Below, piece after piece: positions 21,385 through 24,093 of a stretch of 64,000 nucleotides of DNA. The first letter of the stretch is position 1; each line of letters opens with the position of its first letter. Under the pieces are notes generated by a model. The model was not told the origin of the DNA. It was given only the letters and a program-made list of their open reading frames with translations, and searched no databases. Origin of the DNA: an uncultured Clostridia bacterium (GTDB lineage: Bacteria > Bacillota > Clostridia > Christensenellales > UBA1242); assembly GCA_934747385.1 (NCBI GenBank), contig CAKVGK010000002.1, forward strand, positions 2,436-66,435, read 5' to 3'. A program made the translations under genes and the position numbers.

Positions 21385-24093
21385 ATGACTAAGATATTTG
21401 AAGCAGTTGACAAATTCTTTTCGTCATTTGCAAACTATGCAAATTATAATCTTTACTTTATAATTTTTAGTGCATTGTTCCTTTTCACAATCTTATGTGT
21501 TATTCTTTCAACTTCTCATTCTTACGAATCTCGTTTGATAAAAGCAATTGATATGTTTAACAATTATTTTTTGGACAATCCACAAATAACGGAAGATAAT
21601 TTAATTGCATTTAACAACAAAATGAAATCTAATCGCGTGCCAAAGCAATTGCGCAAACAATGGCAGCAATATGTGCTTTATAGGGAAGAAAAGGCAAGCA
21701 AATACATGTCTTTTGAAAATTGCGTTTCTATTCCTGTTAAAAACAGCACCTACACACGCGACGTTCAAACAATGAACATTTTAGCATACATTTTGGCAGG
21801 CGCATGTCTGCTTTTGAACCTTTATTGTTCATATGAAGAGAGAATTATCGACGTTTTGCAGCACTGCTTGCTTTGCCCAATCTTGATTTTGATGCTTAAC
21901 AGATTGGTTACAATTTTCTTTAACATTAGGCATAACGCGATTATTAGTGACTTGTATTCCAACTATCAATATTTTGAAGTTAATATAGATAAAGCAACTG
22001 AAACATTGCCAGATTATGTTGACTACGAAGTGTTGTTTGACAAAAACGAAATCAAACGCGGCATTCCAATTTTGTACGCATATCTTCAAAAGCGTGCAGA
22101 AGAAGAAAAGAAAGAATTGGAGCGCGCTCGTTTGCGTAACGTTGAACATGAAAAATTCAACTTTGATGAGGCAGGCGTTGAGCGTTCACTTGTGCTTGAA
22201 CGTGCCATGACCGAAGCAGAAAACTACATTGCAGAACGCAAAAAGTTGATGCAAGACATGGAACAAATCAACAACGAAATCTATCAAGAGGAAAATCAGT
22301 TCCGCGAAACAACAAAAGAATATCAGCGTCAAATGCAAGTTAGTAAAGAAACATTTGAAAACTTTAAACAACAAATGGACGACGTTACTTCCAGCATTGA
22401 AGCCAACTATTTGAAAAAGCAACAACAACAAGAACTTGACCGCCAACGCAATTTGGAACGCGATTACGACACAGCAACCGATAGGCATAAAAAAGTTTTG
22501 GAAACCTATCAGGCTGAAATCACAGACGTTGAAAATCAAATCAAAAAAGCAAGAAATGTGCTTGAAAAATCCATGATGAGCGAGTTCGACACTTACAGTG
22601 GCAAAGTTTATGACGAAGCATTGCGCACAGTCGAAGAACGTGAGGCAGATAAATATAACAAAGTTCAAAACAACATCAAAAATTTGGAAGAAAAGTTGAA
22701 GCATAAAGAAGAAGAGGTCAATGGTCTTTATGACGAAAATGAGCAACTTAAAGAGCAAATTTCCACAATTGATGCAGACTATCAACAAAAAATTCAGGAG
22801 CGCGAGCAAATAATTTCACGCGTGTCGGACGAAGTTAACCGCGCAACTGGTAAAAACAAAAAGTCAAAACAAGAAAAAGTTGAGCCTCAGCAAGAACAAC
22901 CTGCTCAAGATGATAATTACGATTATAACTATGCTGACAACACTGATTACGACTACAATCAACAATACGACGACGCTCAGCAACAAGATTATAATTACGA
23001 CGACAACGCACAAGACGAAACTCAAACCTATTCGTTTGACGATGAAGACTACAATCAGCCAGAGCAACAGCCAGAGCAAGAGAGTGCTCAAGAACCTAAG
23101 CATGATGACGCTGACGATACAATTCCTTATGATTATAACAAAGAATATGAGGACGAAAAACGTGAGCAAAATCAACAAGGTTACACTTTCAACTATTTAG
23201 ACGACGAGGAACAAACTCCAAAACAAGAACAGCCAAAACAAGAAAATCATGACTACACATTCAATTATTTGGACGAAGAAGACGAAGGTGCAAACCAAGT
23301 AAAACCAGAACAGGCTGAAGAACAGCCTTCTAAAGAAGAACAAACAGAACAGACCGCGGCAGATTCGGGGGAAAATGCCGACGAGGAAACTGAAGAAGAC
23401 AATTCTCCAGTTGAAGAATCCACTGTTCAAACGGAAGAAAGCAAACCAAAAGGCAAGCCAGGCCGCCCACGCAAAATTGTAACCGAACCGGTTGAAAAGA
23501 AGAAACCAGGTCGCCCACGCAAAGTTGTGACAGAACAACCAGTTCAACAAGAAAAGCGCAAAGCTGGCAGACCAAAAAAGCAAGTTGAAGGTCCTCAAAA
23601 ACCTAAGGGCAAACCAGGTCGCCCACGCAAAGTAGAGCTTCCAGTTGCTGAGCCTGAAAAACGTAAAGCTGGTCGCCCTCGTAAGGTTGAAACCGCTGTG
23701 GTAGAACCTGTAAAACGTAAAGCAGGCAGACCAAAAAAACAAGTTGAAGCAGCAAGTCAACCAGCAAAGAAATCTGTTGGCAGACCAAAAAAGATTGTTG
23801 AACAATCTCAAACCGAACAACCTAAAGGCAAGCCAGGTCGTCCACGCAAAGTTGTGGCTGAACAACCTGTTCAACAAGAAAAGCGCAAAGCAGGCAGACC
23901 AAGAAAAGAAAAAGTTGAGGAAGAAATTAAGAAACCAGTTGGCAGACCAAAAAAGGAAACTAAACCAACACAAATCAACGATATTGACGCATTCTTAAAA
24001 GAAATTGATGATGAAATTGCCAAAGAAAACGCAAAATTGGAAGCTTCAAAAATTCAACTTGAAAAGAATGCAAAAATAAAGAAAAAGAAATAA
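21385..24093 (+). CDS. Membrane-anchored coiled-coil protein with an acidic low-complexity block and ten AT-hook motifs
   Basis: GGGG RBS. N-terminal hydrophobic helices, a long heptad-like charged region, a D/N/Y/Q-rich block, then ten GRPRK/GRPKK motifs. Confidence 0.8.
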   Translation: MTKIFEAVDKFFSSFANYANYNLYFIIFSALFLFTILCVILSTSHSYESRLIKAIDMFNNYFLDNPQITEDNLIAFNNKMKSNRVPKQLRKQWQQYVLYREEKASKYMSFENCVSIPVKNSTYTRDVQTMNILAYILAGACLLLNLYCSYEERIIDVLQHCLLCPILILMLNRLVTIFFNIRHNAIISDLYSNYQYFEVNIDKATETLPDYVDYEVLFDKNEIKRGIPILYAYLQKRAEEEKKELERARLRNVEHEKFNFDEAGVERSLVLERAMTEAENYIAERKKLMQDMEQINNEIYQEENQFRETTKEYQRQMQVSKETFENFKQQMDDVTSSIEANYLKKQQQQELDRQRNLERDYDTATDRHKKVLETYQAEITDVENQIKKARNVLEKSMMSEFDTYSGKVYDEALRTVEEREADKYNKVQNNIKNLEEKLKHKEEEVNGLYDENEQLKEQISTIDADYQQKIQEREQIISRVSDEVNRATGKNKKSKQEKVEPQQEQPAQDDNYDYNYADNTDYDYNQQYDDAQQQDYNYDDNAQDETQTYSFDDEDYNQPEQQPEQESAQEPKHDDADDTIPYDYNKEYEDEKREQNQQGYTFNYLDDEEQTPKQEQPKQENHDYTFNYLDEEDEGANQVKPEQAEEQPSKEEQTEQTAADSGENADEETEEDNSPVEESTVQTEESKPKGKPGRPRKIVTEPVEKKKPGRPRKVVTEQPVQQEKRKAGRPKKQVEGPQKPKGKPGRPRKVELPVAEPEKRKAGRPRKVETAVVEPVKRKAGRPKKQVEAASQPAKKSVGRPKKIVEQSQTEQPKGKPGRPRKVVAEQPVQQEKRKAGRPRKEKVEEEIKKPVGRPKKETKPTQINDIDAFLKEIDDEIAKENAKLEASKIQLEKNAKIKKKK
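23446..23960 (+). repeat. In-frame array of ten AT-hook-encoding repeats
   Basis: K(G/R/K)K(P/A)GRP(R/K)K recurs every 12-25 codons. The block KPGRPRKVV(T/A)EQPVQQEKRKAGRP occurs twice (about 23506-23580 and 23824-23900). Confidence 0.9.

Follow-up and report, generated by a model that had tools for sequence, protein, structure and literature searches.

The 64,000-nucleotide window analysed here, a stretch of contig CAKVGK010000002.1 from an uncultured Clostridia bacterium with a G+C content of 34%, carries at positions 21385..24093 (+) a gene that encodes, from an ATG start, a protein of 902 amino acids followed by a stop codon. From its amino to its carboxyl terminus, the protein consists of three transmembrane (TM) helices, a helical stalk, an acidic block, a basic array of GRP motifs and a terminal helix. 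An earlier note made from the letters alone had described a 902-aa open reading frame (ORF) with membrane segments, a charged heptad-like region, an acidic block and a motif array, and both this layout and the exact limits of the ORF were confirmed. Full-length homologues are 45-74% identical to the window protein. By examining its membrane topology, predicted fold, family-wide conservation and gene neighbourhood, we hypothesize, with about an even chance of being right, that this is a cytoplasmic-membrane protein that ties DNA to the inner face of the membrane.

Searching 5.8 billion proteins gave 348 relatives, and the best 120 of these, all full length and within the above range of identity, were used to survey the architecture: all 120 of these closest homologues keep the three TM helices, the stalk and the acidic block, have from 4 to 11 GRP motifs and end in the terminal helix. 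The few homologues that bear a name are 'hypothetical proteins' from metagenome-assembled genomes (MAGs) of Clostridia, including Candidatus Onthoplasma (Christensenellales), and among GTDB species-representative genomes 59 loci were found, with one copy per locus, all of them in gut MAGs (human, chicken, rabbit, sheep). An exhaustive profile search with the N-terminal module over 1.84 billion cluster representatives gave 246 representatives (158 below 1e-30) of clusters at 50% identity, none annotated; they are 450-1405 aa long, and nearly all span the whole 450-aa module. Conservation along the protein is very high in these N-terminal 450 aa and best in the first 260, the acidic block cannot be aligned, and the GRP cores and terminal helix are kept. 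The N-terminal 450 aa are 61-93% identical across loci L001-L053, at least as conserved as the neighbouring Alr, QueH and LtaS, and are under purifying selection. No family in Pfam, NCBIfam or PADLOC covers this module, the whole protein yields only a sub-threshold AT_hook match, and sequence searches of the PDB gave nothing for the N-terminal module or the tail; matches to SMC, ZorA-tail and JetC profiles were rejected as weak coiled-coil matches. The earlier note knew of no characterised bacterial protein of such architecture, and none was found in the profile libraries, PDB sequences or literature searched. A mobile-element or phage origin was rejected, as no homologue occurs in phage or plasmid collections; the gene is a single-copy, vertically inherited core chromosomal gene.

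The basic block (23443..23964 (+), aa 687-860) carries ten AT-hook-type motifs of the form KK[PAV]GRP[KR]K between aa 693 and 855 (nt 23452-23955), and residues 690-860 have a net charge of +37. GRP occurs exactly ten times, 16-19 residues apart, against a mean of 0.06 (maximum 2) when the whole protein is shuffled and 0.24 (maximum 4) when the tail alone is shuffled. The ten units are 60% identical in DNA and use differing Gly and Arg codons, and Tandem Repeats Finder reported no DNA repeat across the array; the motifs have therefore been kept by protein-level selection and do not stem from recent duplication. The number ten agrees with the earlier description of ten K(G/R/K)K(P/A)GRP(R/K)K motifs, but that pattern fits eight of them, the others being KKSVGRPKK and KKPVGRPKK. 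The residue before Gly is P in four motifs, A in four and V in two, and K or R stands at positions -3, -2, +3 and +4 in all ten; the definition of the AT-hook includes basic residues on both sides of the core, as quoted in PMC4615771. The 975 motifs of close homologues have the consensus KK[R/A/V/P]GRP[K/R]K, with an RGRP core in 58% and a commonest spacing of 18-20 residues, and GRP is invariant in the aligned homologues. Most close homologues carry a precomputed match to Pfam AT_hook (PF02178), and in a set of 51 diverse family members 14 match this profile (best E 6e-13). The array is followed by a conserved amphipathic helix with a periodicity of 3.5 (23974..24090 (+), aa 864-897, IDAFLKEIDDEIAKENAKLE...), and KKKK ends the protein, in agreement with the short C-terminal coiled coil noticed before; a reading of this helix as an ESCRT-III MIM motif was set aside as too weak. 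In one distant relative (L074:8001-10598), an in-frame TAG in the acidic region leaves a 507-aa membrane and stalk protein, with a 356-aa AT-hook tail protein beginning 4 nt later; on this metagenome contig the split may be real or an assembly error.

Directly ahead of the array lies a low-complexity block rich in Tyr, Asp, Asn and Gln (22900..23442 (+), aa 506-686), much as the D/N/Y/Q-rich block first placed at about 22900-23440, which cannot be aligned between homologues. Residues 500-690 have a net charge of -53 (E 18%, Q 15%, D 15%, Y 9%), and the window protein has two copies of the motif YTFNYLD(D/E)E, at aa 600 and 624. In a charge-hydropathy analysis the acidic and basic blocks together (aa 506-860) fall on the disordered side, and the last ~400 residues have the composition of a disordered region. 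The protein thus has the layout of an HMGA-like (CarD-type) domain, namely an acidic segment contiguous with multiple hooks in a region whose composition, by charge-hydropathy, is of the disordered type. Distant members differ in the detail of the acidic region: 58 of 117 distant representatives (relatives P0142-P0235) carry 1-9 copies of a YYDxxG motif (e.g. GGYYDSEGYYRYKN, QYYDENGNLIDYS), which resembles YD or wall-binding repeats and has no Pfam match, and the close clade has a degenerate D/N/Y block and the YTFNYLD(D/E)E motif in its place.

Of the 120 cluster representatives with a length of 560 aa or more, 62 are devoid of GRP. Those of their tails that were inspected are rich in K, A, P and T (e.g. 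KPAAKPAA..., KKTTTKK...), occupy the same position and in most cases precede a related terminal helix; among the tails scanned, three have matches to Pfam HC2 (PF07382), a histone-H1-like chlamydial nucleoprotein family, at 40.8 bits (cut-off 40), 27 and 23 bits. Bacterial HMGA-type domains, in which an acidic segment is joined to AT-hooks, have long been thought limited to myxobacterial CarD (PMC2919716), and within the CarD family the AT-hook domain is replaced in another species by a histone-H1-like basic domain with function kept (PMC2919716, PMC4374960). The exchange of AT-hook for HC2-like tails seen here mirrors that precedent and is what one would expect if DNA (polyanion) binding were the selected property; by this analogy it argues for low-specificity, non-specific DNA binding, and we consider it the strongest indirect argument that we have. 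Myxococcus CarD shares with the window protein a disordered acidic segment followed directly by repeated basic AT-hook motifs. However, CarD, a transcription factor, is soluble, binds RNA polymerase through a Tudor-like N-domain and has four RGRP hooks, whereas here ten [P/A/V]GRP hooks are mounted on a membrane base and a long stalk, and the folded parts have no sequence similarity. The likeness to chlamydial Hc2, a small soluble nucleoid condenser, is confined to the K/A/P/T-rich tails of GRP-less relatives, does not extend to the window protein, and is compositional.

The membrane base, all on the forward strand, begins with TM1 (21451..21513, aa 23-43), which is recognized by hydropathy, AlphaFold helices and topology and follows a short extracytoplasmic helix at the N-terminus (aa 2-18). 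It continues with a helical, very highly conserved cytoplasmic TM1-TM2 loop (21514..21768, aa 44-128) that holds 11-19 Lys plus Arg (K+R) per member and in which E48, P86, W93 and R100 are invariant in the wide family. The TM2-TM3 hairpin (21769..21924, aa 129-149 and 156-180) has a short outer loop without K or R, and P165 is its only near-invariant residue; beyond it lies a highly conserved membrane-proximal cytoplasmic segment (21925..22170, aa 181-262) with invariant P209, F218, L230 and F260. The hydrophobic segments, at nt 21451-21924, bear out the N-terminal helices expected at about 21450-21960. Topology was called by the positive-inside rule, comparing, in the 51 diverse members, the K+R of the TM1-TM2 loop and of the first 30 aa beyond TM3 with those of the N-terminal tail and the TM2-TM3 loop. 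Mean K+R counts are 1.5 for the N-terminal tail, 0.2 for the TM2-TM3 loop, 14.4 for the TM1-TM2 loop and 3.0 for the first 30 residues past TM3, and an N-out/C-in orientation is favoured in 51/51 members, with a margin of 9-21 K+R. Given this charge bias and the lack of any further hydrophobic segment, the stalk and tail are probably cytoplasmic.

The stalk (22171..22899 (+), aa 263 to ~505) is alpha-helical and strongly conserved in sequence up to about aa 445. AlphaFold predicts continuous helices at aa 263-333 and 337-449, and the hydrophobic periodicity switches at about aa 335 from 3.51 (heptad, aa 265-333) to 3.67 (hendecad, aa 337-449); the earlier reading of a heptad-like charged region at about 22050-22860 therefore holds for the first of these segments but not for the second. 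If it formed one continuous coiled coil, a stalk of ~240 residues would be roughly 30-35 nm long, and by analogy with the pentameric tail of ZorA we infer that it is a homo-oligomeric coiled coil. Long stretches of the part at 22171-22731 (aa 263-449) are nearly invariant (e.g. NYLKKQQQQELDRQRNLERD), which is unusual for a mere spacer. Weak Foldseek matches of the stalk to Vipp1/PspA (probability <0.45) were set aside.

Two independent monomeric AlphaFold models were built of the N-terminal module, one of aa 1-450 from a 12-sequence alignment (predicted local distance difference test score, pLDDT, 75) and one of aa 1-300 from 16 diverse sequences (pLDDT 83, predicted template-modelling score, pTM, 0.64). 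When both were compared with the PDB by Foldseek, the four ZorA entries headed the list each time (E between 6e-4 and 1e-2, probability 1.00, TM-score 0.45-0.56), and nearly all the matches that came next were to TolQ chains (with a probability of at most 0.96) and ExbB; taken together, the matches to ZorA, TolQ and ExbB have E values of 6e-4 to 0.3, TM-scores of 0.45-0.56 and root-mean-square deviations of 6-16 Å, all for predicted monomers. In ZorA, three TM helices are combined with a cytoplasmic domain close to the membrane, and a pentameric coiled-coil tail, ~70 nm long, begins after TM3 (PMC11946911). By hydropathy and K+R counts the window protein has the layout of ZorA, TolQ and ExbB, with three TM helices (MotA has four), an outer N-terminus, a large loop after TM1 and a TM2-TM3 hairpin, and in the predicted fold the TM1-TM2 loop and aa 181-262 together make up a cytoplasmic helical domain like theirs; as in ZorA, a long alpha-helical tail would reach into the cytoplasm (PMC11946911). 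The N-terminal base therefore resembles ZorA, TolQ and ExbB in predicted fold and in topology, and as the best-conserved part of the protein it does not look like the mere membrane anchor that had been supposed.

In sequence and context, by contrast, the likeness ends. Pfam MotA_ExbB (PF01618) matches none of the 51 diverse members, and when the family was aligned by hhalign with TolQ and ExbB of E. coli, the TM helices came into register at a probability below 4%, which is not significant. Within the module, conservation is lowest in the TM helices, which contain no conserved polar pore residue beyond one Pro (P165). No MotB-, TolR-, ExbD- or ZorB-like partner was found among the neighbours, as distinct from the whole genomes, in the 59 genome loci and 12 other contexts: phmmer with E. 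coli TolQ/R, ExbB/D and MotA/B, run on every ORF in the window and in the flanks of the 71 loci, gave nothing at E<=1, none of the adjacent conserved genes encodes a single-TM protein with an Asp, and a PRC-barrel-like neighbour and small genes upstream of addB were rejected as partner subunits, since they lack a TM helix. With the ZorA models of PADLOC, the matches were weak (E 0.003) and confined to the coiled coil of ZorA tails. Nor is there a Zorya operon (ZorA and ZorB with ZorC/ZorD or other effectors) around a gene that is monocistronic among housekeeping genes. ZorA also differs in that the tail of the present protein ends in a disordered region of DNA-binding type and that its gene belongs, in the manner of a housekeeping gene, to the core genome of a Gram-positive lineage. 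Because these other defining features failed, we term the base ZorA/TolQ-like in fold and topology, and not a member of the family or a motor.

The synteny around the gene is fixed in the close clade: QueH, Alr, a Zn-peptidase (-), the 902-aa gene, a DUF1858 gene (-), often a 287-aa protein (-), and LtaS. Upstream and divergent lies a Zn_peptidase_2 membrane metallopeptidase (20312..21031, -), which is kept there in the close clade. Downstream, the 61-aa DUF1858 protein (24176..24361, -; Pfam 1.4e-19) adjoins the gene in 45/59 loci and also occurs near distant relatives. It is followed by a 287-aa protein with a C-terminal zinc ribbon (24370..25233, -), which tblastn finds in 18/59 loci; this has no Pfam match and is a divergent SPFH (Band_7_1)-like protein, with BLASTP E values of 3e-10 and 1e-5 to Band_7_1 and zinc-ribbon proteins beside distant relatives. 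An LtaS-type sulfatase gene is the next gene but two. For distant relatives (~25-40% identity) ten contexts were examined, and in eight of them (L060, L062, L063, L068, L069, L072, L073 and L074) the gene is found 70-280 bp downstream of addB-addA, the genes of the helicase-nuclease AddAB; genes for Band_7_1 (SPFH) zinc-ribbon and DUF1858 proteins follow closely in five of these eight. Since SPFH and DUF1858 genes adjoin both the window gene and its distant relatives, their association spans the whole family, while that with addBA is lost in the Onthoplasma clade. The position of the distant relatives beside addB-addA suggests a link to DNA-end processing (repair, or linear foreign DNA). For the role in division or sporulation proposed in the earlier note no evidence was found, and the conserved neighbours (addB-addA, SPFH-zinc-ribbon, DUF1858) point elsewhere. 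Upstream of addB, a small gene product with the RsfA/SANT-like motif 'SVRNYYY' looks like an RsfA/SANT-type regulator.

The gene has a ribosome-binding site, AAGGGG, read from the sequence 5 nt ahead of its ATG (21374..21379, +). A possible extended -10 promoter element, TGTTATAAT (21332..21340, +), lies in the 350-bp AT-rich intergenic region that the gene shares with the divergent Zn-peptidase gene; a consensus promoter scan missed it because it has no -35 match. No regulatory RNA was found upstream of the gene. At its other end, a hairpin with a 14-bp stem and runs of A and T on either side (24140..24170) is likely a bidirectional terminator common to the gene and the convergent DUF1858 gene, and it separates the two, so that the 902-aa gene is monocistronic. 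Antisense ORFs within the gene, at 22186-22809 (-, 207 aa) and 23197-23973 (-, 258 aa), were rejected as genes, being low-complexity by-products of a very A-rich coding strand (AT skew 0.41 in 22001-24000). Elsewhere in the window, a giant ORF (7782-18587, +) encodes 3601 aa with a lipoprotein-type signal (MKKTAKIICLILTLFVSALFSAC...); its first 1000 aa have no significant Pfam match, and its C-terminal part recurs at 36-45% identity in 6/59 related loci, evolving fast by comparison with its neighbours. The remaining content is ordinary for a chromosome and consistent with a core-genome setting: pyruvate:ferredoxin oxidoreductase (30632-34069, +), signal recognition particle RNA of the large bacterial type (34108-34373, -), tRNA-Asn (GTT; 27640-27714, +) and tRNA-Ser (GCT; 59561-59651, -).

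If the protein does tie DNA to the membrane, its integral N-out/C-in base would hold the stalk and tail in the cytoplasm, the stalk would form a homo-oligomeric coiled coil of ~30-35 nm, and the AT-hook array would grip AT-rich DNA at many points in its minor groove, so that chromosomal or incoming DNA would be kept a fixed distance away from the membrane. The acidic Tyr-rich block may compete with DNA for the basic block and so modulate binding, the terminal helix and the conserved stalk surface may bind partners, and the process served may be DNA-end handling, given the linkage to addBA. Several observations weigh against such a tether. None of the ten motifs of the window protein has the canonical RGRP core, and the protein scores 14.2 bits with Pfam AT_hook, below the gathering cut-off of 17.4; the AT-hook label given in the earlier note thus suits the GRP core and its basic flanks but not the canonical core or the profile match. 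AT-hooks, including extended AT-hooks, can moreover bind RNA (PMC4615771). The connection once drawn with AT-rich genomes failed: tails of both the AT-hook and the H1-like type are found in loci with a G+C content of 25-47%, and since locus G+C does not separate the tail types, AT-hook tails as an adaptation to AT-rich genomes were rejected. The sizes of the acidic and basic charges correlate (rho 0.39), but once length is controlled for the correlation is lost (rho 0.15, p 0.11), so that charge-compensated (tuned) masking is unsupported; masking of the array by the acidic block, as previously suggested, is plausible by analogy with HMGA and CarD. Lastly, a membrane domain and stalk as very highly conserved as these imply specific partners or an activity, for which a simple tether does not account.

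Three other explanations have to be set against DNA tethering. The basic tail might bind RNA or another cytoplasmic polyanion (mRNA, rRNA, polyphosphate), or its Tyr-acidic and Arg/Lys blocks might drive a membrane-attached condensate, as would fit the RNA binding of some AT-hooks and extended AT-hooks (PMC4615771), the ten motifs without the first Arg of RGRP, and a tail that is a block polyampholyte with 9% Tyr in its acidic block and YYDxxG repeats in relatives. Yet the alternative tails are of the histone-H1/HC2 type, known DNA condensers, RGRP makes up 58% of family motifs, and in distant relatives the conserved neighbouring genes encode an enzyme that acts on DNA, AddAB; we think this explanation unlikely. 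A little less probable again is that the protein is the A subunit of an ion-driven 5:2 motor of the ZorA/MotA/TolQ type, in which the coiled-coil tail rotates or signals as in the Zorya anti-phage defence system and a DNA-binding tip replaces soluble DNA-binding effectors. For both AlphaFold models the top four PDB matches are ZorA, with TolQ/ExbB next, the topology is that of ZorA with the tail right after TM3 (PMC11946911), the hendecad part of the stalk is compatible with the right-handed tail described for ZorA, and a helicase-nuclease, AddAB, is conserved beside distant relatives. All the same, the failed profile comparisons set out above, poorly conserved TM helices with no conserved polar pore residue except one Pro, and the missing partner in the 64-kb window and 71 locus flanks tell against a motor, as do a setting of housekeeping genes in fixed synteny with no defence island and the absence from phage and plasmid collections. 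It is highly improbable that the C-terminal region is extracellular, a case that the earlier note had itself raised, and serves as the basic wall-, teichoic-acid- or extracellular-DNA-binding tail of a surface protein: although the K/P/A/T-rich segments and YYDxxG repeats recall wall-associated repeats of Gram-positive surface proteins and the LtaS-type sulfatase gene is close by, the positive-inside margins place this region inside in every one of the 51 members, no signal peptide, sortase motif or wall-binding Pfam domain was found, and the fold analogues ZorA, TolQ and ExbB share the N-out/C-in orientation.

DNA tethering, the reading that we prefer, has parallels among known proteins. The nearest architectural analogue is MFP1 of plant plastids, in which TM helices at the N-terminus are combined with a long coiled coil and a DNA-binding region at the C-terminus, and which is not homologous. 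B. subtilis RacA-DivIVA and Noc and plastid PEND, none of them homologous, are likewise membrane-DNA tethers, and so is RicO of Staphylococcus aureus, also not homologous, which bridges DNA and membrane by a DNA-binding domain and a membrane-binding amphipathic helix (bioRxiv 10.64898/2026.03.06.710092). RicO, RacA and Noc have folded sequence-specific DNA-binding domains and peripheral membrane attachment, whereas the protein described here is integral and has a putatively multivalent, low-specificity tail. Each element is thus known by itself, in CarD's HMGA-like domain, in tethers such as RicO, RacA, Noc and MFP1, and in the ZorA-like base and tail, but the combination is undescribed and the family unannotated.

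A further, speculative idea, which we rate as improbable and on a footing a shade below that of the motor, is that the family is a partner-less housekeeping relative, in Gram-positive bacteria, of ZorA-type membrane machines, whose homo-oligomeric base would sense or transmit a membrane event such as DNA entry or envelope stress through the rigid hendecad/heptad stalk to some tens of AT-hooks, which would capture DNA and pass it to AddAB. If true, this would link a Zorya-like architecture to ordinary DNA-end processing and point to a way in which such defence systems could emerge from, or decay into, core functions. Apart from that idea, the family, with 246 clusters, represents a second, independent and much larger bacterial occurrence of an HMGA-type domain than CarD, and its N-terminal 450 aa define a family absent from Pfam that bears on how widely the ZorA/TolQ/ExbB architecture was put to further use. 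In distant relatives, the constant location downstream of addB-addA gives a starting point for work on function, and the protein is a testable candidate for DNA-membrane attachment in a large group of uncultured gut Clostridia.

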